In this document: positions 2,307-32,853 of the stretch, piece after piece
Position numbering within the stretch: position 1 is the stretch's first letter
Layout of the letters: each line of letters opens with the position of its first letter
NCBI GenBank assembly: GCA_900540635.1
Contig: UQGU01000001.1
Span: 79,312-143,311 of the forward strand
Length of the DNA: 64,000 nt
Direction: 5' to 3'
DNA from: an uncultured Eubacteriales bacterium
GTDB lineage: Bacteria; Bacillota; Clostridia; Oscillospirales; Oscillospiraceae
Notes under the pieces: generated by a model
Told to the model about the DNA's origin: nothing
Seen by the model: the letters and a program-made list of their open reading frames with translations, nothing else
The model's database searches: none
Translations under genes and position numbers: made by a program

Positions 2307-2957
2307 TTAACTGTCGTAATATGCAATTGCGTCCTGTGCCAGTCGTTCAAACCGCTTTTGATATTCGGGAGGAACGAAGATTCCCTCAAAGCTGTCGCCG
2401 TGCGCATAGTAGTACCGGCTGACAGCCTCCGTAATCCCCTGCATGTCCAGAATGGACTCGTTGGCAAGCGCGTCCGAGAGCGTCCGGTTGAAGCTCGTAA
2501 AGGAGAGGCCATTCTTGTTCTGGACATCGATGGGGCTGATCTGATTTCCCAGAACGGCAACACCGTTGAATTTCGTTACGCTGTCTGCTCCGTACACCCA
2601 GACCAGGTATTCATCGCTGCGACCACCAAAGCCGCCCTGGCACATCAGTGCTTCATCCAACGCGAATACAACCGGCTGGTCGATACAATCACGGACAGCC
2701 CGAAGCCAGGAAAAGGCTCCCACATAATCACGCCGCTTGGGAAGATCACGCTTCTGTGGGTCATATTGCGGCAGCACCCTTGTTTTTCTGTTTATCAAAT
2801 CCTCGCGGATACGATGTTCCAGCAGGTTTATCATATATTCCGGCGGCTTGCGCACGCCTGTTTCCCAATTCTGGACAGTACGGAACGGGATTTTGTACCG
2901 TGCGGCAAATTCGCTCTGGGTATCGCCCAGCTGCATCCGCATTCCCCGAATATCCAT
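2307..2957 (-). CDS. XRE-type HTH protein with a C-terminal domain; putative antitoxin/regulator partner of the NTase
   Basis: The HTH reads MRMQLGDTQSEFAARYKIPFRTVQNWETG. An AGGGAGGTGA RBS precedes the ATG at 2957. The palindrome atacactca-a-tgagtgtat overlaps its promoter. Confidence 0.55.
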   Translation of the reverse strand: MDIRGMRMQLGDTQSEFAARYKIPFRTVQNWETGVRKPPEYMINLLEHRIREDLINRKTRVLPQYDPQKRDLPKRRDYVGAFSWLRAVRDCIDQPVVFALDEALMCQGGFGGRSDEYLVWVYGADSVTKFNGVAVLGNQISPIDVQNKNGLSFTSFNRTLSDALANESILDMQGITEAVSRYYYAHGDSFEGIFVPPEYQKRFERLAQDAIAYYDS

Positions 2958-3046
2958 ATCGATCACCTCCCTTATATAATACACTCATTGAGTGTATTTA
3001 TCAAGTGCTTTTTGTAGGGAAAATACTTCCGGTGGAGTTCAATGCC

Positions 3047-3078
3047 GCAAGGGTATCGCATCTCACAACACCCTTGCA
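3047..3078. repeat. Hairpin repeat copy 2 (gcaagggtatcg-catctca-caacacccttgc)
   Basis: Same family as copy 1, two stem mismatches. With copy 1 it brackets the NTase-HTH cassette in direct orientation. Confidence 0.75.
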
Positions 3079-3112
3079 GGTGTTTTGTTATCAAACCGAG
3101 TATTAACTGGTA

Positions 3113-3502
3113 TTAAAAGCTCCCAACAAAATCCAGCGCCGCGTCCCAGTCTGTACTGTTGTTGGCCTCAACCTCCTCCTTTGTAGGAGCGGATGGCGCA
3201 CCTTGCGTCCCCTGCAACAGTTGGAGCAGAGCAGCCAATCCGGGGGCTGGGGTAGGTTGTTGGGCAGCCCGGATGGTGTCAATTACCCGCTGAAGAAACG
3301 CGTCCTCCTTCTTGCGGGTTTCCAGATAGGGGTCAGCTTCCAACTGTTCCTGCCTGGAAAAGTAGGCGTTGACGGCGGCAATCACGGCGCTGTTCACGGA
3401 ACGGTACTTCTTCCGATCCAGCCGCCGCAAATGCTCCATAGCTTCCCGGTCAGCCTCATTTTCCAGATTCAGCCGCAGGGTGGTCGTGTAGAGCCGCTTC
3501 AT
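3113..3502 (-). CDS. ParR-like ribbon-helix-helix partition adaptor
   Basis: 129 aa. N-terminus MKRLYTTTLRLNLENEADREAMEHLRRL. Immediately downstream of the ParM-like gene; the 4-bp overlap is read from the ORF-track coordinates. Confidence 0.5.
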   Translation of the reverse strand: MKRLYTTTLRLNLENEADREAMEHLRRLDRKKYRSVNSAVIAAVNAYFSRQEQLEADPYLETRKKEDAFLQRVIDTIRAAQQPTPAPGLAALLQLLQGTQGAPSAPTKEEVEANNSTDWDAALDFVGSF

Positions 3503-16977: not shown

Positions 16978-18654
16978 TTAGAACAGGCCGGAGATCTTGC
17001 CGTCCTCGTCCACGTCGATGCGCTCGGCGGCGGGGACCTTGGGCAGGCCGGGCATGGTCATGATCTCACCGGTCAGGGCAACCAGGAAGCCTGCACCGGC
17101 AGAGACCTTCACGTTGCGCACGGTCACGGTGAAGCCGGTGGGTGCGCCCAGCTTGGTCTGGTCGTCAGAGAAGGAATACTGGGTCTTGGCCATGCAGATG
17201 GGCATCTTGTCGTAGCCCAGCTCGGTCAGGGTCTTGATCTGCTTCTCGGCATTGGCAGTGAAGGTCACGCCGTCGCCATGGTAGATCTTCTTGACAATGG
17301 CCTCGATCTTGTCCTTGATGGGAGCATCCACATCATAGCTGAAGGTGAAGTCATTGGGCTGCTCGCACAGGCGGATGACCTCCTTGCCCAGCTCGATGCC
17401 GCCTTCGCCGCCCTTGCCCCAAACCTCGGACAGAGCAACGTTGACACCCAGAGCCTTGCACTTCTCCTCAACCAACTTCAGCTCGGCCTCGGTATCCTGG
17501 GGGAAGCGGTTGATGGCAACCACGCAGGGCAGCTTGTAAACCTTGGTGATGTTCTCCACGTGCCGCAGCAGGTTGGGCAGGCCCTTCTCCAGAGCCTCCA
17601 GGTTCTCCTTGCCGGTCTCGGCCTTGGGAACGCCGCCGTTGTACTTGAGGGCGCGGACGGTGGCAACCAGCACCACGCAGCTGGGCTTCAGGCCAGCCAT
17701 ACGGCACTTGATGTCCAGGAACTTCTCAGCGCCCAGGTCAGCACCGAAGCCAGCCTCAGTGACGGTGTAGTCAGACAGCTTCAGAGCGATCTTGGTCGCG
17801 GTGACGGAGTTGCAGCCGTGGGCAATGTTGGCGAAGGGGCCGCCGTGGACGAATGCGGGGGTGTGCTCCAGGGTCTGGACCAGGTTGGGCTTCAGAGCGT
17901 CCTTCAGCAGGGCAGCCATAGCGCCCTGGGCGTTCAGGTCACCGGCGGTGACGGGCTTGCCGTCCCGGGTGTAGGCAACCACCAGGCGGGCCAGTCTTGC
18001 CTTCAGATCGTTAATGTCGGAAGCCAGGCACAGCACGGCCATGACCTCGGAGGCGACGGTGATGTCGTAGCCGTCCTCACGGGGCATACCGTTGGTCTTG
18101 CCGCCCAGGCCGTCCACCACGAAGCGGAGCTGCCGGTCGTTCATGTCCACGCAGCGGCGCCATACGATCTGGCGGGGGTCGATATTCAGGGCGTTGCCCT
18201 GGTAAATGTGGTTATCCAGCATGGCGGCCAGCAGGTTGTTGGCTGCGCCGATGGCGTGGAAGTCACCGGTAAAGTGCAGGTTGATGTCCTCCATGGGGAC
18301 AACCTGAGCGTAGCCGCCGCCGGCAGCGCCGCCCTTAACGCCAAACACAGGTCCCAGAGAGGGCTCACGCAGGGCAACCAGAACGTTCTTGCCCAGCTTG
18401 CGCATACCGTCGGCCAGACCGACGGTGGTGGTGGTCTTGCCTTCGCCGGCAGGGGTGGGGTTGATGGCGGTGACCAGGATCAGCTTGCCATTGGGCTTGT
18501 CAGCCATGTCCTTGAGGATCTTGTAGTCCACCTTTGCCTTGTACTTGCCGTACTGCTCCAGGTACTTCTCGTCCACACCGGCGGTCTTTGCGATCTCGGT
18601 AATGGGCTCCATGACGGTTTCCTGTGCGATTTCGATGTCAGTTTTGAATGCCAT
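16978..18654 (-). CDS. fhs: Formate-tetrahydrofolate ligase
   Basis: 558 aa from [11 protein letters not shown], with the P-loop [15 protein letters not shown]. Confidence 0.95.
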
Positions 18655-18761
18655 AGTTATCAATCTCCTTGTATTGTGTAATCGGCTCCCTTGCCGTGAG
18701 TTTGGCTCGGGTGCATACAGGACTTATGCGGGTCACCGTGAGTCTGGGTCGCCGCACGTTT

Positions 18762-18785
18762 CTATCGGTACTTTCGTACCGATAG
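18762..18785 (-). promoter_or_regulatory. Perfect 11-bp-arm palindrome ctatcggtac-tt-tcgtaccgatag at the predicted fhs transcription start; candidate operator
   Basis: On the minus strand a TTGACA-17-TATTCT promoter at 18787-18815 puts the transcription start inside this palindrome. A half-site CGTTTCTATCG recurs inverted at 18911-18921. Confidence 0.45.
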
Positions 18786-20433: not shown

Positions 20434-21165
20434 TCAGCGCAGGAGGGCGGTTTGCAGGTAGGCATAGTAGGCGGACCGGGCACTCTGGATATAGATGCGG
20501 CTGATGGGGATCTGTTCATCGGTACAGAGCAGGAAGCTTCGGGCATTGAGGCCTGCCACATGGCGCAGATTCACCGCAAAGCTCACGTGGCACCGGCACA
20601 GGGTGCCGCTCTGGAGCTGGGCGAGGATCTCGCTGAGCTTCTGGCGGGTGCGGATGGTGTGGCCGGAGAGCAGATGCAGATAGGTGATATGGTCCTTCCG
20701 CTCCAGGTAGACGATGCCGGAAAGCCGAAGCTGCAGGGGCACCCTGTTGGACAGGACGGTCAGGGTCTCCTCCCGGGCGCTGTCGAGAACGGATGCGGCC
20801 CGAAGCAGAAATTTTGGAAGCTGATTTTCCAGCTGCTCCTTCAAAACCATGCCCAGGTGGGGCACATCGTAAACATCGCTGACATACTGGGGGTAGCCGC
20901 TGACAAAGATGATCTGGCACTCGGGGAATTTTTCGACGATGCTCCGGGCCAGGGAGATGCCGTTGTCCTGCTTCAGCACAATGTCCAGCACCGCAATGTG
21001 GAGCTGCACCGAGGAGTCCGGCAGGGCCTCCGCTCCGGCGGCGCAGTGGAAGACGGCGTTGTATTGGGGCAGCAGCGTCTTTTTGCACAGGGCCAGCAGC
21101 CGGTCCAGGACCAGGGGTTCGTCGTCGCACAGAAGAACGTTCCATTCCTGCTGCTTATTGGGCAT
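20434..21165 (-). CDS. LytTR-family response regulator (AgrA-like)
   Basis: Receiver domain (LLCDDEP...) plus a C-terminal LytTR DNA-binding domain. Confidence 0.85.
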   Translation of the reverse strand: MPNKQQEWNVLLCDDEPLVLDRLLALCKKTLLPQYNAVFHCAAGAEALPDSSVQLHIAVLDIVLKQDNGISLARSIVEKFPECQIIFVSGYPQYVSDVYDVPHLGMVLKEQLENQLPKFLLRAASVLDSAREETLTVLSNRVPLQLRLSGIVYLERKDHITYLHLLSGHTIRTRQKLSEILAQLQSGTLCRCHVSFAVNLRHVAGLNARSFLLCTDEQIPISRIYIQSARSAYYAYLQTALLR

Positions 21166-22498
21166 TGGCAGTCTCTCCTTCCTGCTTTTCCGGCAGCGGG
21201 AGACACAGGTCCGTGCGGAAGCAGCCGTCCTGATATTCGGTCTTCAGGGTGCCGTGGTATTTGGAGGCGATGGTATTCAGGATGCCCAGGCCCAGGCCGT
21301 GGGCACGCAGGGGGTTGTTTTCCTGCTTGCGGGCAGGCTTCCTGGCGGGGTTGGCGCAGGAGATCATCAGGCAGTTTCCCCGGACCATGGCCTGAAGCTC
21401 AATCGTCTTCTGCTGCGCGCCGCTTTCCAGCACGCCCTGGATGCTGTTGTCCAGCAGGTTGGAAAAAATGCTGCACAGCTGGGCGTTTTCCACAGGCAGC
21501 TCCGGCGGGAGCTCCGTATTGATGCTCAGCCGAATGTCCTTCTCCCGGCAGAGGCGGGCCTTGTCGGAGAGCACCGCATCCACCATCAGATTGCTGCTGA
21601 ACCGGGGGCCTACCCGGGAGCCAAGGCTATGCTGCACCTGGCCCAGCTGCTGGCGGGCCAGTCCGGTTTCGCCGGAATCCATCAGCTGGTAGGCGGCCTG
21701 GAGCTGGTTGTTGAGGTCGTGGCGGATCTGGTTCACCGTGAGGATGCTCTCCTGCAATTGCCGGTAGTAATCGGTCTGCACGTCCAGCTGCTCGTTGGCC
21801 ATGCGCACCTGCTGGCGCAGCTCCTCGCTCTGCTGGACCTTCCACATGCCGAAGACGAACACCGCGTCCGCGACGATGGACAGCAGCACCCCAAAGGCAT
21901 AGGTCTGCCGGATGCCGCCGATGCCGCCTACATAGGAAATGAGCCTGTTGATCACGTTCATGAGAATGATCTGGCTGACGGGGATGGGCAGGAAAAACAG
22001 AAGCTTGGGGGAGAGATGCCACCGGGGAAGCACCTCTGTCACAAAGCGGTAATAGCCAAGGCAGACCGGGACGAAAAGCAGCTGGCACAGAAAGGTCATA
22101 ATGGCGTTGCCGAAGGAATCCTTCCGGTCCAGCAGAACCTCCGGGGGGATCTGGAGCTTCTCGGCAATGGGAAAGGTGACGAGGCTGCCCACAAACATAA
22201 TGGCGATGGTGGAGGCGAACAGCCCCAGAGAAGTAACCGCGCCCCCGATTTTATGCCCCCTGGGGGCGATGCAGAAGACATAGACCAGACTGCCGGCGAC
22301 GGTAGCGGCATCCAGCACGGCGGAGGGGGCCGGGAGCAGATAGTTATTGACCGCCCAGATCCCGAGAAACAAAAGCGCCGACACCCATACATGCACCCAG
22401 GGGTGCTTCGGCTTTATCAGGCGTACGATGGTACCGAACAAAAGCAGATTGCCCAGCAGGATACCCAAACAGTTGCAAAGCACGATCAGAGGATACAT
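21155..22498 (-). CDS. Membrane sensor histidine kinase (AgrC/LytS-like, GHKL ATPase)
   Basis: About six predicted TM helices at the N-terminus. HK region with NLLDNS and GLGLGI motifs. Confidence 0.8.
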   Translation of the reverse strand: MYPLIVLCNCLGILLGNLLLFGTIVRLIKPKHPWVHVWVSALLFLGIWAVNNYLLPAPSAVLDAATVAGSLVYVFCIAPRGHKIGGAVTSLGLFASTIAIMFVGSLVTFPIAEKLQIPPEVLLDRKDSFGNAIMTFLCQLLFVPVCLGYYRFVTEVLPRWHLSPKLLFFLPIPVSQIILMNVINRLISYVGGIGGIRQTYAFGVLLSIVADAVFVFGMWKVQQSEELRQQVRMANEQLDVQTDYYRQLQESILTVNQIRHDLNNQLQAAYQLMDSGETGLARQQLGQVQHSLGSRVGPRFSSNLMVDAVLSDKARLCREKDIRLSINTELPPELPVENAQLCSIFSNLLDNSIQGVLESGAQQKTIELQAMVRGNCLMISCANPARKPARKQENNPLRAHGLGLGILNTIASKYHGTLKTEYQDGCFRTDLCLPLPEKQEGETANAQ

Positions 22499-22705
22499 TG
22501 CTGACCTCCCGAAGACTTTCTGATGCTTCCATTATACATGAGACCGCCCGGAAAGCAAGGAGAACAGGGACAAAAGCTTCGTTTTTGGCAACGAAACGCC
22601 ATAGTTGGCACCATAACGTCATAACTGGCAGATGATGGAAAAGGGGCTGGGTGGTATAATAGCCCTAAGAAGATACCCCCTTGCGGCGGGGACAGGAGGA
22701 GAAAT

Positions 22706-23927
22706 CATGACCACAGCAGAAGTTCTGGAAACCATCAAGCGGGAGTACGGCGAATCGGCTCTGCGGGACGGGAAGCGGCTGCAGGGGCTCTTTGCCGACT
22801 GCTCCCGGGGGCAGATGCGGCCCCAGGCAAATGCTTTGCGCATCTTTCTGGAGTGCAGCGGCAATACGCGGATCTTGAACCTGCGCGCTGCTACCTATGA
22901 GACCCGGCAGCGGGAGCTCCATCGGCTGGTTCAGGAGATGGTGATTTCCTACAGTATGCAGGGAGTCATGGTGCAGGAGATTTGCGGAGCGTTTTGGCAA
23001 ATCACCGTCGGTGGGGAGCTGCCACTGACCGCTGCGGAGTCGGAGCAAAAAACCGAACCGGCACCCCAGCCGGAAATCAGGCAGGTGCAGAAGCAGCTTG
23101 TATCCACGCTGGCCAGTCTGGAAAATGAAGAACGGACTCAGCTTCGGCAGGTGCAGCCCCCGGCACCAGACCCCATTGAGGCGGCCCGGCAGAAGGGCTT
23201 TGAAATTTCCCGGGAAGGTGTTTTGACAAAATATACCGGAAAAGAAACCGATGTGGTGATACCGGATTGCGTAAAGATAATCGGCGACGGCGCTTTTGAT
23301 GCGAATTGGGATTTAAAGTCGGTCACAATTCCGGAAGGCGTCACAAAAATTGAGCAAAATGCGTTTTTCTTTTGCTCAGAGTTGGAAACAGTCACTTTGC
23401 CGGAATCCTTGTCTAAAATTGGAGAGGATGCTTTTGGATGGTGCGACATGCTTGTGTTTCCAAAGCTTCCCTGCGAATTGAGCCTAAAACACATTGGCAC
23501 CGGCGCGTTCAGTAAATCCCATTTGCAAAAGGCTGTGTTGCCTGGGGCGCTTGACGAAGTAAATCTTTCGTGGCTGGCGCCGTTCCCGCCAAAAGTGGTT
23601 TCCATATCCGCTGGGACGCGGACTGTGAAGATTCAGGCTCTCCAGCGCGGCTGCTTTTTGGAAATTCCGGATACCGTCAACAGTATAGCAGTGACCGGTG
23701 ACCTGGGTACAATGAGCAAGGTTGGGGAACGTATTGTGATTCTTGCCTCCGACCAATGGGTAAGCAGGCATAAAGTGTTCCTTATGCTGAACAAGAAGCT
23801 TTGCGTGACACCGTCTCTTCTGGCTCACACAAAGTATTACCGCAACGGCCGTTGGTCCGAAGAAGTATGGCAGAAATATGGCCATAGTTGCGGAATGCTT
23901 GGAATAACAGACAATAACCTTCCCTGA
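22706..23927 (+). CDS. Cytoplasmic leucine-rich-repeat (BspA-type LRR) protein with an uncharacterised ~150-aa N-terminal domain; first gene of the kinase/vWA/PP2C operon
   Basis: Start MTTAEVLETIK with an AGGAGGAG RBS. LRR units VIPDCVKIIGDGAF / VTIPEGVTKIEQNAF / VTLPESLSKIGEDAF. No signal peptide. Confidence 0.7.
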
Positions 23928-23986
23928 TAAGAATCCCTACAGTATCCGGCAATAATCACAAAAGCAGAGAAAGAGGAGGAAAAGCA

Positions 23987-25279
23987 ATGAACGGACAATT
24001 ACAGCCGGGGACCGTCCTGGCTTCCCAGGCCCAGGTGCACTACAAGGTGCTCTCCCTGCTGGGCGCCGGAGGGCAAGGCGAGGTATACGAGGTGGAGGCC
24101 GGGAGCACCCGGATGGCGCTGAAATGGTACTACCCCAAAAGCGCCCAGCCCCAACAGCTGGAAATTCTGAAGCGGCTGGTGGAGATGGGCGCGCCGGACG
24201 GGGCCTTTCTGTGGCCGGAGGATCTGATCTTCGCCCCGGAGGGAAAGACCTTCGGCTATGTCATGCCCCTGCGGCAGAACAATTACAAGGGCCTGGTGGA
24301 CCTTTTGAAATGCCGGGTAGAGATGTCTCTCTACACCCGGTGCCGCATTGCCTACAATCTGGCCAGGGCCTACGAAAAGCTCCATGCCTCCGGCAACTGC
24401 TACCGGGACATCAACTACAATAACCTCTTCTTCGACCCCGCCACCGGAGACGTACGCATCTGCGACAACGACAACGTGGCCCCCAAGGATATGCCGGGGC
24501 TGGTGAAGGGCACCTACGGCTTCATGGCCCCGGAGATCATCCGGGGAGAGGCCAAGCCCTCCCGGTATACGGACCAGTTCTCCCTGGCGGTGCTGCTGTT
24601 CCACCTGTTCATGATCGCCCATCCCCTGCTCGGCAAGCGGGAATCCAGCATCAAGTGCTGGGATATCCACGCCCAGGATATGCTCTACGGCACCCATCCG
24701 GTGTTCATCTATGACCCCGGCGACGACAGCAACCGCCCAGACCCGGCGGTCCACGGCAACGCCATCGCCTACTGGAAGGTGTACCCCCAGGAGCTCAAGG
24801 ACCTGTTTACGGAGAGCTTCACCACGGGGCTCTTCGAGCCCAACCGCCGGGTAACGGAGAAGCGCTGGATGGACGCGGCAGCCAACCTGATGTGCGGCGT
24901 CCGCCGCTGCCCCAAGTGCGGCGCAGAGGTCTTCTACGACGAGGCCAAGGCGGAAAAGGGCCACGTATGCTGGAACTGCAAATCCCCCGTGCCCATGGCC
25001 GGGGTGCTGCAGATTGGCAAGCGGCGGCTGCTGATCCAGCCCGACGCCCGACTCTTCAGCCACCAGATCTCCGGAAATTACGACATGCAGACCGTGGTTG
25101 GCACGGTGGTCTGGAACCCGAAGAACCCCAGCCTGCTGGGCCTGCGCAACGACAGCCGGGAGAACTGGACCTACCTGAAAGCAGACGGTGCCCAGGTACC
25201 CGTTGCCCCCGGCAGAAGCGCCGCCATCGTCCGGGGCGCAGGCATCGATTTTGGCCTGAAAAAAGGGGAATTCCGGTGA
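23987..25279 (+). CDS. Hanks-type Ser/Thr protein kinase with a C-terminal zinc-ribbon and extra domain
   Basis: LGAGGQGEVYEV...ALKW (G-loop/VAIK), YRDINYNNLFF (HRD-like), GTYGFMAPE (APE), then CPKCG...CWNCKSP. Confidence 0.9.
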   Translation: MNGQLQPGTVLASQAQVHYKVLSLLGAGGQGEVYEVEAGSTRMALKWYYPKSAQPQQLEILKRLVEMGAPDGAFLWPEDLIFAPEGKTFGYVMPLRQNNYKGLVDLLKCRVEMSLYTRCRIAYNLARAYEKLHASGNCYRDINYNNLFFDPATGDVRICDNDNVAPKDMPGLVKGTYGFMAPEIIRGEAKPSRYTDQFSLAVLLFHLFMIAHPLLGKRESSIKCWDIHAQDMLYGTHPVFIYDPGDDSNRPDPAVHGNAIAYWKVYPQELKDLFTESFTTGLFEPNRRVTEKRWMDAAANLMCGVRRCPKCGAEVFYDEAKAEKGHVCWNCKSPVPMAGVLQIGKRRLLIQPDARLFSHQISGNYDMQTVVGTVVWNPKNPSLLGLRNDSRENWTYLKADGAQVPVAPGRSAAIVRGAGIDFGLKKGEFR

Positions 25280-25368
25280 GTTCCCGGGCCGATGCGGGCA
25301 CCGGTCTGCGAGAGACTGCAAATCATTTCCTTGATTTTATATTTCATATCGACTAGGAGGAACAAACA

Positions 25369-26115
25369 ATGGCTGACAAACTGAAAATTCCCGGGGGAGC
25401 CCTGGCCAACCGGCCGCTGCACTTTTTCTGGATGGTGGACTGCTCCAGCTCCATGTCCGGCGACAAAATCGGCGCGGTGAACCACGCCATTCAGGAGTGC
25501 ATCGAGCCCATGCGGGAGGAGGCTGCGGGGAATCCCAACGCACAGCTGTACATCCGCACCCTGAAATTCGCCAGCGGCGCCTCTTGGGTCACGGCAGAGC
25601 CGGTGCCCATTGAGGAATTTGCCTGGGAGGATGTGGAGGCCAACGGCATCACCGATCTGGGCAAGGCCTTTGAGCTTCTGGCCGGGCAGCTGTCCATGCC
25701 CCCCATGCCCGCCCGGGCGCTGCCCCCCGTGATCGTCCTGCTGACCGACGGCTACCCCACGGACGACTGGAAGCGGCCCCTGGAAAAGCTGCTGAAAATG
25801 CCCTGGGGCAAAAAGGCCGTGAAGGTGGCCATTGCCATCGGCAAGGATGCGGACCGGTCTGTGCTGGAGGCCTTTACCGGCAATCCCGAGGCGGTGCTGG
25901 ATGCGGGCAACCCGGAGATCCTGACCCATTTCATCAAGTGGGCCTCCACCGTGGCCAGCGCCGTATCCAATCCCACCAGCAATCCCACCGAGGAAAGCGC
26001 CGAGCCCCAAGCCTCCCAGGAGCCCCAGAGTGAGGACGCACCGGAAGGCCGCGTGCTGGAGGGGAACATCTCCCTGCCGGATCTGGACGAGGTGGACACG
26101 GAAGACGTGTGGTAA
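25369..26115 (+). CDS. TerY-like von Willebrand factor A domain protein
   Basis: MIDAS DCSSSMSGDKIGAVN. Overall collinearity with TerY (IDTSGSMSGEPIEAVN...LLTDG). Acidic C-terminal tail. Confidence 0.85.
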   Translation: MADKLKIPGGALANRPLHFFWMVDCSSSMSGDKIGAVNHAIQECIEPMREEAAGNPNAQLYIRTLKFASGASWVTAEPVPIEEFAWEDVEANGITDLGKAFELLAGQLSMPPMPARALPPVIVLLTDGYPTDDWKRPLEKLLKMPWGKKAVKVAIAIGKDADRSVLEAFTGNPEAVLDAGNPEILTHFIKWASTVASAVSNPTSNPTEESAEPQASQEPQSEDAPEGRVLEGNISLPDLDEVDTEDVW

Positions 26116-26142
26116 GCGCCGAAACGCCATGGGAGAACACAC

Positions 26143-26994
26143 ATGATGCGAAGAATTCTCGGGGAGTCCGTCCGGGGCTACACCCACATCCAGCGGGAGC
26201 TGGAGTGCCAGGACAGCAAGGATTCCCTTGTATTGGAGGATGGGACCGTTATTTTGTCCGTAGCCGACGGCCACGGGAGCCGGTCCTGCCCCTATAGCAG
26301 GCTGGGGGCAGAGCTGGCGACCAAAACCTTCTGCGCGCTGGCGGACGGGCTGTGCCACGGCTTTCAGAAGCGACAGGACCGGCTCTCCGACTACCTGAAT
26401 CACGAGGGCAGCCTGCGCTTTGCCCAGGAGGTGGAGCGAGCCTGGAAGGGCGACGTGCTGCACTGCCACCGGACGCTGGGCCGGGACATACCCCTGACGG
26501 AGGCGGGCGCGGAAAACGAAGCGGCGGTGTACCGCCTGTATGGCACCACGCTGCTGGGGCTGGTGATCGCCCGGGATTTTGTGTTTGCCTTCCAGATCGG
26601 TGACGGAGACATCACCTATGTGGATGGCGGCGGCAGCCAGCCGGTGGTGCAGGCGGACAAGCTGCTGGGAGTGGAGAGCCACTCTCTGTGCTCTGCCGAT
26701 GCCTGGAAACGGGCGGTATCCGCCGTCCATTTTCGGGACCGGGCGCAGAAGGAGCCCTATGCGTTCCTGCTGTCCACCGACGGCTTTTCCAACAGCTATG
26801 CGGACGATGCGGCCTTCGGAGAGACCTGCAGGCAGTATTTTGAGGCTTTGATCACCTACGGCCCCGATGCGGTGGCGGAAAACCTGCCGGAATGGCTCTC
26901 GGAGACCAGCCGCCTGGGCTGCGGGGACGACACGACCCTGCTGATCGCCTATTTTGCGCCAGGGGAAGAAACCAACAAGGAGGAGATTCAATGA
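26143..26994 (+). CDS. PP2C-family Ser/Thr phosphatase
   Basis: ILSVADGHGS, DGDITYVDGGG, LLSTDGFSN, and a C-terminal GCGDDTTLL. Confidence 0.85.
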   Translation: MMRRILGESVRGYTHIQRELECQDSKDSLVLEDGTVILSVADGHGSRSCPYSRLGAELATKTFCALADGLCHGFQKRQDRLSDYLNHEGSLRFAQEVERAWKGDVLHCHRTLGRDIPLTEAGAENEAAVYRLYGTTLLGLVIARDFVFAFQIGDGDITYVDGGGSQPVVQADKLLGVESHSLCSADAWKRAVSAVHFRDRAQKEPYAFLLSTDGFSNSYADDAAFGETCRQYFEALITYGPDAVAENLPEWLSETSRLGCGDDTTLLIAYFAPGEETNKEEIQ

Positions 26995-27341
26995 ATGCAG
27001 CGGTGATTTTACAGAAATGCAGCAGAACCGGAAAGACATTCGGAATTCGGGTGCAGCAGATGGATGACGGGGAATGGTACCGGACCTGGGCATTCCCCAT
27101 GGACGAAGCCCGGGCCGGCCGGGAAGGGTACTCCGGCACCAAACTAAACAGCATGCTGCCGGAAACCCCGGAATACCCGGGCTGCCCCTATTGCGGAAGC
27201 AAGGGCTTTTTCTATGACTACAACTGCGGAAAAATCAGCTGCTATTACGGGGATACCCACGTCACCTGTCCCTGGTGCGGCGGGGACTATGACGTCAGCC
27301 CTACGGATAAAAAGCTGGATTTCCGCGGCGGCGACCTGTAA
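26991..27341 (+). CDS. 116-aa Cys-rich zinc-ribbon protein, translationally coupled to the PP2C gene by an ATGA overlap
   Basis: MNAAVILQKCSRTGKTF...CPYCGSKGFFYDYNCGKISCYYGDTHVTCPWCGG. AAGGAGGAG RBS. Confidence 0.6.
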   Translation: MNAAVILQKCSRTGKTFGIRVQQMDDGEWYRTWAFPMDEARAGREGYSGTKLNSMLPETPEYPGCPYCGSKGFFYDYNCGKISCYYGDTHVTCPWCGGDYDVSPTDKKLDFRGGDL

Positions 27342-27362
27342 GGCTGCCGGGAAGGAGCGACT

Positions 27363-28361
27363 ATGAAGCGTTTGAGAGTATGGCTGCTCATCGCCGCACT
27401 GGCGGTGCCCCTGAGCCTGGCAGGCTTGGCCCCGGCGGAGCTTTTCACCGTCCCGGCAGAGGCCTCTCTGTGGGATTTTTTTAAGAGCAAAACGGCAAAG
27501 GCCGTGGAGCTCCGCACGGCGGAAGACCTGGAAGAACTGCGCAAAAACCCGGAGGGCAGCTTTGTGCTGGCGGAGGACATCTCCCTGGACTACGTTCCCT
27601 TCTCCGCCATTGAAAGCTTTAACGGCACCCTGGACGGCCAGGGGCACTGGATCGACGGACTTGCCCCGGAAATGGGCAGCGACACCGTCACCTGCCTGTT
27701 CGACACCCTGGGGAGCAAGGCTGTGGTGAAGGACCTGAACGTAAGGATCGGCATTCTGATGGACAGCGACGTCCCCGTCCATATCTCCGGCCTGGCCGGG
27801 AGCAACAACGGTACCGTCCGCGGCTGCCGAATCCAGAGTGAGATCGTATGGAATGACGAGGTGTGCACGGAGCCGGAGCCCGCCATTGCCCTGCAGCACT
27901 ACGCTCCCGTGGCCGCCTATAACGGCGGCACCATTGCGGACTGCACCCTCCAGACGGGTGTCAACGCTCTGGGCAATGTGTACGGCATCGTAGAAGAGAA
28001 CTACGGCACGGTGACGAACTGCGATGTAGATCTGAACACCAACAGCTGCACCAACGTCAGCGGCCTTGCCTACCGAAACTGGGAGGCCATTGACGGCTGC
28101 TGGATAAGCGGCCAGGCAGATACGGTCACGGAATTCTGCTGCATCGCCCGGCAGAATTACGCCCCCATTACAAACTGCCGGTTTGATATGTGGATCAATG
28201 GCCCTGCTGGGCAGGGCTGCAGTTGGAGCATCAGCGGCTTTGAAGGGGACGGCCACAGCTTTGACGATTCCAACACCGTGAATGTTTCGGAGCTGAACAA
28301 CCGGGCCGGAAGCGGCGCCGTCGGCAGCGGGACCGTAGGCGGCACCGGCGGCAATCCGTGA
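27363..28361 (+). CDS. Secreted GLUG-repeat protein with a signal peptide; last gene of the operon
   Basis: Signal peptide MKRLRVWLLIAALAVPLSLAGLAPA. At least five repeats of the G-x-I/V-x-N/D-C type (GTVRGCRI, GTIADCTL, GTVTNCDV, AIDGCWI, PITNCRF). Gly-rich C-terminus. Confidence 0.65.
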   Translation: MKRLRVWLLIAALAVPLSLAGLAPAELFTVPAEASLWDFFKSKTAKAVELRTAEDLEELRKNPEGSFVLAEDISLDYVPFSAIESFNGTLDGQGHWIDGLAPEMGSDTVTCLFDTLGSKAVVKDLNVRIGILMDSDVPVHISGLAGSNNGTVRGCRIQSEIVWNDEVCTEPEPAIALQHYAPVAAYNGGTIADCTLQTGVNALGNVYGIVEENYGTVTNCDVDLNTNSCTNVSGLAYRNWEAIDGCWISGQADTVTEFCCIARQNYAPITNCRFDMWINGPAGQGCSWSISGFEGDGHSFDDSNTVNVSELNNRAGSGAVGSGTVGGTGGNP

Positions 28362-28435
28362 GGCAGCGCGGTATCCGTAAATTGCAAAGAAGGCCCGGCG
28401 GGCAAAACCGCCGGGCCTCCTTTGCGCAGAAAAAG

Positions 28436-28453: not shown

Positions 28454-28555
28454 CCGGGGATTAAGATTTCCTAAAGAATGGCCCCGGGTGCTTGACTGGA
28501 AAAAACAGGCGTTGTATAGTATCTGTATTAGTACGATTCATACAAGGAGGGACTG

Positions 28556-31547: not shown

Positions 31548-31585
31548 AAGAAGCGCCCCTTTCGTGGGGTGTTCGTAAGACAGTT

Positions 31586-31624
31586 AACAGAGCGTATCGA
31601 TATTGATACGCTCTGTTTCTTATT
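31586..31624 (+). terminator. Intrinsic terminator: 13-bp perfect stem aacagagcgtatc / gatacgctctgtt followed by a T-rich tail
   Basis: Read from the sequence downstream of the ABC operon. Confidence 0.7.
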
Positions 31625-31658
31625 CCATTATGAGATATGGCGCAGTTGCTGGCAGCCT

Positions 31659-31708
31659 CCTTGGCTCTCCCTCTGGGAGAGCTGTCACCGAAGGTGACTG
31701 AGAGGGTC
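31659..31708. repeat. Left 50-bp inverted repeat flanking the DUF559 gene; contains two hairpins
   Basis: ccttggctctccc-tctg-ggagagc tgtcacc-gaag-gtgac tgagagggtc. It overlaps the last ~7 codons of the ORF. Confidence 0.75.
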
Positions 31709-32065
31709 TTGCAGACGCTTTTGAATGGTAAAATCAATTTGTTCGCACACACCACGAAAATCTCTGTCGATATCCCGGTTGGAAAATCGCAGAACATCCA
31801 AGCCTAGCGCAGATAAAAATGCGGAGCGTTCTGCGTCATACGCCACACCCTGAGGCTCATAATGCTGGGAGCCATCTACTTCGATAACCAGCTTTGCAGA
31901 AGCGCAGTAAAAGTCCACAATAAATTTGCCAATGATTCGCTGTTTATAAATCTTTACCGGATATTTACGCAGAAAAAGATACCAGAGTTTGCGCTCATGG
32001 GGAGTCATTTCTCTGCGAAGCCGCCGGGCATTTTCCAGCTGGCTGTTATCTTTTGGTATGGTCAT
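31685..32065 (-). CDS. DUF559 (Vsr-like) endonuclease-domain protein
   Basis: 126 aa, MTIPKDNSQLENARRLRREMTPHERKLWYLFLRK...FIVDFYCASAKLVIEVDGSQH, typical of DUF559. Confidence 0.8.
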   Translation of the reverse strand: MTIPKDNSQLENARRLRREMTPHERKLWYLFLRKYPVKIYKQRIIGKFIVDFYCASAKLVIEVDGSQHYEPQGVAYDAERSAFLSALGLDVLRFSNRDIDRDFRGVCEQIDFTIQKRLQDPLSHLR

Positions 32066-32071
32066 ATTTTT

Positions 32072-32119
32072 ACCCTCTCAGTCGGCTGCGCCGACAGCTC
32101 TCCCAAAGGGAGAGCCAAG
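32072..32119. repeat. Right 50-bp inverted repeat, the reverse complement of the left copy, with compensatory changes in the inner hairpin; it supplies the gene's RBS
   Basis: accctctca gtcggc-tgc-gccgac agctctccc-aaa-gggagagc caag. The left copy's inner hairpin is gtcacc-ttcg-ggtgac. Confidence 0.75.
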
Positions 32120-32197
32120 TTCCGCGCGTAACGCACTGCACCGAACGGTGTATAGAAGTGCGCCCTTAGTATCTGTTAGACAAACAGGAATTTATCG

Positions 32198-32641
32198 CTA
32201 ACCTTTATAAAATCTAAACGCTTCCTCATACATTATCCGAGACTGTTTTTCATCGCCCCACGATAACGGATCATCAGCATAACTTAATGTCCGAAACGGT
32301 TGCTCTTGCACTAAGAATCCCGGTAACAGATTCCAAAGTTGGTAACATATCTTTCCAAATTCAGCGATAGTATAAACATCGGATTTATACACAATTTCTA
32401 AACCATTAAAAAGAGTCTTTCCGAATATATATGAGTCAAAAGTATTCGTCTCATATTCAAAATATCTTTTCAATCGCGCAAAAGTTTCCTTGTAATTGTT
32501 TGAGCACTCTTCTAACTCTAAAAGTATTTTATTGTTAGGTGTTTCAGAAAACAATCTGTCTAAATGCACATTGTATTCCTGCATAGAGCAAAACCCCCAC
32601 GCCCAAAGATATGAGTAAGCAAATAAACATTCCAAGTTCAT
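32198..32641 (-). CDS. Hypothetical protein in an AT-rich islet
   Basis: 147-aa ORF. GC is clearly lower than the flanks. No recognisable motifs. Confidence 0.45.
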   Translation of the reverse strand: MNLECLFAYSYLWAWGFCSMQEYNVHLDRLFSETPNNKILLELEECSNNYKETFARLKRYFEYETNTFDSYIFGKTLFNGLEIVYKSDVYTIAEFGKICYQLWNLLPGFLVQEQPFRTLSYADDPLSWGDEKQSRIMYEEAFRFYKG

Positions 32642-32853
32642 CACCCAAAACTCCGATTTTTCAGTCTGTCCGATTCCATATTATCACATAACGGGACAGA
32701 ATACAAGAACAGCCACAGCAGTGTATACTGTGGCTGTTAACTGTCTTATGAATACCGCCCCTTGGGGGCGCTTTTTTGTTGACTTTCTTCCCTTTTCCAC
32801 CTATAATAAATTATTAATTGCGACAAAAACCCTTACTTACGGAGGATCACCAT

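Follow-up and report, generated by a model that had tools for sequence, protein, structure and literature searches.

A TerY-P-type kinase operon in gut Oscillospiraceae, and an N-terminal domain family that appears to link repeat proteins and helicases to its FHA-kinase/vWA/PP2C core

Why should a leucine-rich repeat (LRR) protein, a Ser/Thr kinase, a vWA protein, a PP2C phosphatase, a Cys-rich zinc protein and an exported beta-helix protein be encoded in a single bacterial operon? The question is raised by six genes (g1 to g6) in a 64,000-nucleotide stretch of DNA from an uncultured Eubacteriales bacterium of the family Oscillospiraceae (assembly GCA_900540635.1, contig UQGU01000001.1, positions 79,312 to 143,311). 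This stretch is referred to below as the window, and coordinates are those of the window unless another locus is named. A first-pass annotation had recognized the composition of the TerY-P triad in the kinase, vWA and PP2C genes, and this is borne out by matches to the Pfam models Pkinase, VWA and PP2C_2. The locus is not a new kind of system but a TerY-P-type module, and the TerY-C protein encoded by g5 is an already known companion of such modules. What appears to be new is an unannotated family of N-terminal domains (NTDs), represented here at the start of the LRR protein, that links LRR, Sel1, TPR, ankyrin, helicase and HIRAN proteins to the FHA-kinase/vWA/PP2C core across phyla. On balance, we infer that the locus is a TerY-P-type Ser/Thr phospho-switch in which exchangeable NTD proteins serve as the subunits for recognition or recruitment, probably in defense.

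The first gene, g1 (22707-23927), encodes a protein of 406 aa in which the NTD (residues 1 to ~110, 22707-23036) is followed by a P/Q-rich linker and by BspA-type LRR_5 repeats (residues 179-285, 23241-23561; Pfam E 3e-20) that are degenerate beyond this segment. The protein has no hydrophobic N-terminus and is therefore taken to be cytoplasmic. A homologue search with full-length g1 was swamped by generic BspA-type LRR proteins and returned the NTD in only one match, which is 95% identical. An exhaustive search with residues 1-175 as the query identified 109 representative clusters (at 50% identity), in which the match corresponds to the N-terminal ~110-125 residues of proteins of 56-951 aa. 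This region is matched by no Pfam or NCBIfam model. The domains located C-terminal to it in the 109-cluster family include LRR_5 (20 members), Sel1 (18), LRR_8, TPR, DUF285, RHS, RCC1 and MORN. In the alignment of g1 orthologues, the architecture of NTD, linker and LRR is kept and three NTD residues (D31, R73 and W97) are invariant. Comparison of the NTD profile with PDB sequences produced nothing beyond a summed match to designed armadillo repeats, which is spurious, and Z-alpha hits that fall short of significance, and a metagenome scan for NTD genes returned matches from the window's species only.

The association of the NTD with the kinase emerges from a survey of gene neighborhoods. The kinase clade spans at least 585 species-level genomes, from which the best 80 loci were taken; 60 of these have enough flanking sequence to be treated as full loci. 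An LRR_5 gene is adjacent to the kinase in 53 of the 60, either directly upstream of it or between it and the vWA gene. The first-pass annotation thus joined the LRR gene to the triad with good reason, but the part that is conserved is the NTD and not the LRR. When an NTD profile was first made from nothing but database relatives of the window's NTD, its 61 hits fell in 51 loci, of which six are copies of the window locus, and every hit was on the strand of the kinase. The iterated profile places one or more NTD genes close to the kinase at 76 of 83 loci; each of its 111 hits shares the strand of the kinase, and the 8289 opposite-strand open reading frames (ORFs) searched gave none. Loci with an NTD beside the kinase come from Bacillota, from metagenome-assembled genomes (MAGs) of Synergistota and from a Methylomonas plasmid. 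The proteins that bear the NTD in these neighborhoods are diverse: fusions to GYF plus LRR_5, to an SF1 helicase and to DUF2963/RHS are found, as are fusions to a DEAD/Helicase_C (DEAD/RecQ-like) helicase and to HIRAN, ankyrin, TPR, Sel1 and Tim44-like domains. Tandem arrays also occur, with three NTD genes in a sister species (locus L007) and five after the kinase, vWA and PP2C genes on the Methylomonas plasmid, and the number of NTD genes varies between strains of the window's species. What g1 conserves therefore appears, from these comparisons of sequence, to be the NTD, whose C-terminal partner, here the LRR, can be exchanged for many others; in this respect the NTD resembles a promiscuous docking module, with the LRR as one cargo among several. 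We found no description of the NTD in the searchable literature, whose coverage does not extend to Anantharaman et al. (2012), where an earlier description is possible.

The core to which the NTD proteins are linked retains its catalytic features. The second gene, g2 (23987-25279), encodes a 430-aa protein that begins with a Hanks-type Ser/Thr kinase domain (residues ~19-300; Pfam Pkinase, E 2e-16). The catalytic Lys and Asp, on whose presence the first-pass annotation had made its case depend, are in place (K46 and D141) and, along with N146, D160 and E183, do not vary among the 11 aligned sequences of the family. The zinc ribbon that had been assigned to the C-terminus is also present, as a CxxC...CWxC arrangement of C308/C311/C328/C331 (24908-24979) with the first three Cys invariant and the fourth nearly so, but it does not make up the whole C-terminus, since an FHA domain follows it. 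This domain (residues ~340-430, 25004-25276) is predicted to adopt the FHA beta-sandwich fold, structure predictions having covered the kinase C-terminus and g6. Candidate FHA loop residues (G344, R347, H359, N388, S390 and N393) are invariant or near-invariant in the 11 sequences, and their order fits the canonical GR, SxxH and NG motifs by position only.

The third gene, g3 (25369-26115; 248 aa), matches the generic Pfam VWA model only. Its metal ion-dependent adhesion site (MIDAS), as read from the sequence, is complete: D24-x-S26-x-S28 is the DCSSS of the motif DCSSSMSGD quoted in the first-pass annotation, T95 and D127 are also present, and the surrounding consensus is conserved in an alignment of 67 vWA sequences (that of the window and 66 relatives). 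The same alignment reveals a conserved acidic C-terminal peptide, ...IPDxDD(I/F)xxGDVW-COOH (within 25990-26115 in g3), after a variable low-complexity linker. This peptide has the look of a motif on which another component could dock; a search for phospho-acceptors found that the Thr in the tail of the window's vWA protein is not conserved among the 67 sequences. The fourth gene, g4 (26143-26994), encodes a 283-aa PP2C phosphatase (PP2C_2, E 2e-33) with metal-binding Asp residues (D24, D42, D154, D156, D213, D262 and D263) conserved across 65 PP2C sequences, namely that of the window and 64 relatives. Judged by their intact catalytic and metal-binding residues, both kinase and phosphatase are predicted to be active. 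The fifth gene, g5 (26991-27341; 116 aa), had been described as a Cys-rich zinc-ribbon protein coupled to the phosphatase gene by an ATGA overlap. The overlap is real, but the protein is not a new accessory: it is a stand-alone TerY-C domain (PF15616, E 1.7e-10, over the curated cut-off), conserving C10, C65, C68, C79, C84, C93 and C96 in an alignment of 35 TerY-C sequences. The same domain is already annotated by NCBI on a Prevotella plasmid, where a 'TerY-C metal binding domain-containing protein' is found with kinase, VWA and PP2C genes and, farther on, an exonuclease and FtsK.

Several features of the DNA suggest that the six genes are expressed as one unit. All six ORFs are on the + strand (22707-28361), as confirmed by the ORF list and by reading of the sequence; the operon starts one base later than the 22706 given originally, with an ATG at 22707-22709 and a GGAGGAG that ends 5 nt upstream, and reading from 22706 would be out of frame. 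The spacings from g1 to g6 (59, 89, 27, -4 and 21 nt) are those reported before, and independent gene calls on many human-gut metagenome contigs, in which the locus is identical, give the same six genes. The ATGA of the g4/g5 junction has AAGGAGGAG just before it, and g5 and g6 are each preceded by an AGGAGG-type ribosome-binding site, which for g6 is GGAAGGAG. Downstream of g6, a G+C-rich hairpin (28392-28417, + strand), read from the sequence, has a perfect 10-bp stem (GGCCCGGCGG / CCGCCGGGCC) followed by TCCTTTG and likely marks the end of the transcription unit; it was missed by the scanner because its T tract is weak. The next strong promoter-like site in the promoter scan (TTGACT-17-TATAGT, 28492-28520) lies past the hairpin, ahead of gntR-ABC genes. 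The arrangement is not a matter of chance, since it is kept in the sister species L007 (kinase 88% identical) and, g6 excepted, in dozens of genomes.

Most parts of the operon recur together in other bacteria. Near the kinase in the 60 full loci are a vWA gene (59), a PP2C gene (59) and a TerY-C gene (41), and the kinase-vWA-PP2C set as a whole is retained in 59. Three arrangements can be distinguished. In type A (Lachnospiraceae, 30 loci), the order is rnf operon, kinase, NTD-LRR, vWA, PP2C, TerY-C and aldo-keto reductase; the rnf and aldo-keto-reductase genes that flank many loci reflect housekeeping synteny and were rejected as components of the module. In type B (20 full loci from several Lachnospiraceae genera and one Synergistales MAG), PglZ and BrxL are followed by NTD-LRR, a 168-aa protein without a Pfam hit, kinase, vWA and PP2C, and then by TerY-C and/or a transglutaminase-like protein. 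In the window type (Oscillospiraceae), one to three NTD genes precede kinase, vWA, PP2C, TerY-C and g6, the last being absent from L008 and L009. PglZ and BrxL, which mark the bacteriophage exclusion (BREX) system, lie directly upstream and on the same strand in 20 of the 60 full loci, with PADLOC scores of 979 and 1144 bits and agreement from Pfam. Kinase homologues also occur on three plasmids, at full length and 23-42% identity; the two that were checked, from Prevotella and from Methylomonas (kinase 42% identical), have vWA and PP2C genes beside the kinase. No relative of the kinase was found in the phage genome collection.

These neighborhoods contain further genes of note. The ~168-aa protein, for which no Pfam model gives a hit, has its gene immediately upstream of that for the kinase in 25 loci, most of them BREX-linked (L080, 9492-10001, for instance), and is by eye a candidate PH/GRAM-type protein. 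Proteins of 1120-1180 aa are encoded downstream of the triad and the transglutaminase-like gene in three BREX-linked loci (L066, L073 and L076); the one that was scanned (L073, 14342-17884) is an SF1 helicase (AAA_11/AAA_12) bearing an NTD-like segment, and in L066 and L076 a further protein of ~1000 aa follows. In L010 (4270-5076) and L011, the slot after TerY-C that g6 occupies in the window holds a gene for a membrane-anchored DNA/RNA non-specific endonuclease (Endonuclea_NS_2).

Upstream of g1, and divergent from it, are genes for a LytTR response regulator (20434-21165, - strand) and a HATPase_c_5 histidine kinase (21155-22498, - strand), assigned by Pfam annotation of the same genes on metagenome contigs. 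This pair (20434-22498) is a candidate for the operon's regulator. The 208 nt that separate it from g1 (22499-22706) are conserved in the window, L003, L007 and L088, as are the sequence blocks of a candidate promoter region within them (22585-22660, + strand). A repeat search identified three TTGGCA/CTGGCA repeats in this region, at 22585, 22605 and 22625 and therefore 20 nt apart, directly upstream of an extended -10 (TGGTATAAT, 22652-22660) that lacks a good -35. On the opposite strand, a TGTATAAT-type -10 (22530-22538) may serve the histidine-kinase/LytTR operon. Activator-dependent LytTR promoters such as agr P2/P3 have a layout similar to this arrangement of repeats and extended -10. The operon is thus probably transcribed from a promoter under the control of the divergent LytTR two-component pair, and the conserved divergent region suggests that the cassette is under Agr-like control. 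In three loci from the window's species (L003, L004 and L005), an extra 289-aa NTD gene without a recognizable C-terminal domain lies between the histidine kinase and g1 (in L003, at 2608-3477); the same loci have a 323-aa g6 and a response-regulator gene that is disrupted or replaced.

The divergent histidine kinase is retained, at 69-89% identity, upstream both of the related cassette in L007 and of a swapped one in L088. The L088 cassette is TerY-P-like but different: it encodes two vWA proteins, a PP2C of 650 aa, a kinase of 359 aa, two TerY-C-like proteins and one like g6; it contains no NTD gene, and its TerY-C is only ~30% identical to that of the window. It occupies the same chromosomal site as the window's operon, as judged from the flanking histidine kinase, which is 87-89% identical and apparently frameshifted. 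In L088 the same promoter region would drive an alternative cassette, and the site may be a regulated hotspot that receives different TerY-P-type cassettes.

Does the last gene, g6 (27363-28361; 332 aa), belong to this module? As the first-pass annotation proposed, g6 encodes an exported GLUG-like protein: a signal peptide, with a lipobox in most homologues, is followed by a predicted right-handed beta-helix, whose closest counterparts are the GLUG domains of IgA1 proteases. Pfam Glug (PF07581) does not match g6 even at E 10, and a distant homologue (P0362) reaches 16.6 bits against a cut-off of 20.5 (E 0.01). The related beta-helix domains are those of streptococcal and Gemella IgA1 metalloproteases and of BACOVA_03286 (PDB 7uvk, 7jgj and 3n6z), from which g6 differs in having no protease domain. 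The suggestion that it is an exported effector of the system is without support, as it has no recognizable catalytic domain and its family is restricted to one narrow lineage, with 13 protein clusters in 5.8 billion. Of the three genes that had been regarded as accessory, the LRR_5 and TerY-C genes are found with the triad in other genomes, in 53 and 41 of the 60 full loci, but g6 in only one.

One could therefore argue that the functional unit is g2-g5 (or g1-g5) only and that g6 is an unrelated surface lipoprotein gene, co-transcribed by chance. The family is tiny and lineage-specific, and a distant homologue, in L087, has no triad genes upstream: L087 was considered as a third link between g6 and the triad and rejected, the upstream genes in the 1.7 kb available matching no module gene. 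In addition, the 90%-identity cluster of g6 contains 270 distinct sequences (323-333 aa), compared with 31-97 for the other operon genes and, among these, 53 for the kinase, making g6 the most polymorphic gene of the operon within the species, as is typical of surface proteins. On the other hand, g6 is separated from g5 by only 21 nt, has its own ribosome-binding site and is preceded by no terminator, the hairpin coming only after it, and g6 homologues follow TerY-C in L007, L089 and L088. The L088 homologue is only 46% identical although the flanking histidine kinase is 87-89% identical, so that the divergence of g6 follows that of the cassette rather than that of the flank and thereby favors a functional link. 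Independence of g6 is thus possible but doubtful, and g6 is best described as a lineage-specific add-on that travels with TerY-C.

If the locus is indeed a phospho-switch with exchangeable NTD subunits, its parts suggest how it could work. There would be at least five of them: a kinase with a zinc ribbon and a phosphothreonine-binding FHA domain, an opposing PP2C phosphatase, a cytoplasmic MIDAS vWA protein, the small TerY-C zinc protein and the NTD protein. The NTD would act as a docking handle to the kinase/vWA core, with the MIDAS face of the vWA protein or the FHA domain as candidate contacts, while binding of the trigger or target would fall to the variable C-terminal module, in this locus an LRR solenoid. 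Binding of a ligand to the LRR subunit could gather kinase molecules, leading to trans-autophosphorylation and to binding of the phosphothreonine by the FHA domain, following the logic of Chk2 and Rad53. The kinase may then phosphorylate host or invader proteins or, in other genomes, recruit NTD-tagged helicases or HIRAN proteins, and the PP2C phosphatase would reset the switch.

The most likely biological role of such a switch is defense against phages or other invading DNA. Defense is favored by the TerY-P precedents, by the linkage to BREX, by the plasmid copies, by the swapping of cassettes and by the strain-variable NTD arrays. Several observations weigh against the proposed mechanism or its role in defense. 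The NTD alignment contains no conserved Ser or Thr that could be a phospho-acceptor. The LRR is not a hypervariable sensor, an idea that we rejected because LRR and PP2C are conserved to similar extents among orthologues (75% versus 77% in type A and 55% versus 58% in type B). The kinase runs on into an FHA domain, whereas the versions tested in defense carry an OB-fold (PMC11090510). With PADLOC, g2 receives generic kinase hits and nothing more, g3-g5 receive no hit, and no TerY model is reported; this negative is weak because the TerY-P-like Prevotella set receives no TerY hit either, and the library may have no such models or narrow ones. No BREX or other defense genes were seen next to the operon within the window. 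Finally, in type A the kinase and vWA protein (85% and 93% identity) are as conserved as the flanking RnfB and reductase (87% each), which indicates vertical inheritance, unusual for defense islands; as a single vertically inherited lineage, type A counts as one observation. The stability of this lineage and the lack of defense neighbors in the window keep a physiological signaling role alive.

According to that alternative, the set regulates an envelope or secretion process, with the LytTR (Agr-like) system as input and g6 as output. A precedent exists in Pseudomonas, where PpkA (a kinase with a vWA domain), PppA (a PP2C phosphatase) and Fha1 regulate H1 type VI secretion by threonine phosphorylation, and the same four domain types are found here. 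Such a role would suit the way in which one Lachnospiraceae lineage keeps the module at a stable position by vertical inheritance, the export and co-location of g6 and the conserved promoter region that the operon has in common with the divergent LytTR system. WXG100/FtsK secretion genes are moreover present in some published TerY-P clusters (PMC4978471, PMC11090510). However, almost none of the loci of the kinase clade has the proposed output, g6 (1 of 60 does), no secretion-machinery genes were seen in the window or the related loci, and the vWA protein is here a separate, cytoplasmic one. The linkage to BREX, the plasmid copies, the cassette swapping and the fusions of the NTD to helicases and HIRAN point instead to nucleic-acid conflict, and we regard a physiological role as unlikely. 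A metal- or stress-sensing switch, responding to tellurite or metal stress as in the original Ter-associated proposal for TerY, is very improbable: the MIDAS vWA and Cys-rich TerY-C proteins are putative metal binders and a 'metal-sensing phosphorylation-dependent signalling switch' is a published prediction (as quoted in PMC11090510), but neither the window nor the 80 loci showed terB, terC, terD or any other Ter gene, and a metal sensor would not need variable protein-binding repeat modules on its NTD proteins.

We know of no published account of how TerY-P senses infection or of what TerY-P does. If the NTD proteins are the recognition or recruitment subunits of TerY-P, as we propose, the question of sensing becomes testable. 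A bolder and only tentative extension of this proposal is that the NTD proteins are previously unrecognized, exchangeable specificity subunits of a bacterial FHA-kinase immune switch, with different solenoids (LRR, Sel1, TPR, ankyrin) or DNA enzymes (helicase, HIRAN) docked in each organism, by way of one domain, on a common kinase/vWA/PP2C/TerY-C core. Such a switch would be a counterpart, based on phosphorylation, of NLR-type pattern recognition, placed in this case under Agr-like quorum-sensing control and coupled to a surface GLUG lipoprotein. The NTD is also of interest as an unannotated domain family that is common in human-gut Clostridia, and it places in a functional context many proteins annotated as 'leucine-rich repeat protein', which would otherwise be taken for surface adhesins. 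In addition, the BREX link, together with the exchange of cassettes next to a promoter probably under LytTR control, suggests that abundant gut Oscillospiraceae have a regulated defense hotspot.

Two further observations concern other parts of the window. The sole Rfam hit is an FTHFS RNA motif (RF02981, 91.6 bits) at 18665-18783 (- strand), directly upstream of the formate-tetrahydrofolate ligase gene (16978-18663, - strand). Between an ABC-2-like permease gene and trmB there are ~1.3 kb (31548-32817), and since the same gap is only ~330 nt in strain L001, this segment is a small strain-specific insertion. It contains two ORFs on the - strand, a candidate DUF559-like gene, recognized by eye only (31685-32065), and a gene for 148 aa with a low G+C content of 0.44 (32198-32644).

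The closest known system is TerY-P itself, described by Anantharaman, Iyer and Aravind (2012), as summarized in PMC11090510 and PMC4978471, as a triad of a TerY-like vWA protein, a PP2C phosphatase and a Ser/Thr kinase that carries a zinc-ribbon fusion, and linked in those two papers to restriction and DNA-processing systems. Protection against T7-like phages is given by three-gene TerY-P systems (Gao et al. 2020, as summarized in PMC7699616), TerY-P-like modules with a kinase OB-fold act as stand-alone anti-phage systems (PMC11090510), and a Pseudomonas variant that is missed by both PADLOC and DefenseFinder protects against Autographiviridae (bioRxiv 10.1101/2022.08.12.503731). The present locus shares with TerY-P the presence of vWA, PP2C and Ser/Thr kinase in one operon, the zinc ribbon at the kinase C-terminus and the accompanying TerY-C domain protein. 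The frequent placement of its relatives beside restriction-type systems, which for this clade means BREX, and the existence of plasmid-borne relatives are common to both as well. It differs in having the NTD-repeat protein as a near-constant fifth partner and, in the window's lineage, an appended gene for an exported GLUG beta-helix.

Comparison with more distant systems is also instructive. The H1 type VI pathway of Pseudomonas aeruginosa (PpkA, PppA and Fha1) likewise combines Hanks kinase, PP2C, FHA and vWA domains in one switch, but there the vWA domain is periplasmic and kinase-fused and the FHA protein is separate, whereas here the vWA protein is separate and cytoplasmic and the FHA domain is kinase-fused; no secretion apparatus lies near the operon. 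In the eukaryotic FHA-kinases Chk2, Rad53 and Mek1, the domain order is the reverse of that in g2 (kinase, zinc ribbon, FHA), and there is no sequence relationship beyond the folds. A kinase that has a zinc ribbon as well as a beta-rich domain, together with PP2C and a stand-alone vWA protein, has been described in actinobacterial GTPase systems (PMC7159879). The same study (Kaur et al. 2020) deals with effector-associated domains (EADs) in NTP-dependent conflict systems. EADs pair homotypically with a copy in the core protein, whereas no copy of the NTD was found in the kinase, vWA, PP2C or TerY-C proteins, and the core here is a kinase and not an NTPase. The likeness lies in the overall design, as both the EADs and the NTD are short N-terminal modules, carried on many unrelated sensor or effector domains and encoded beside a core signaling enzyme.

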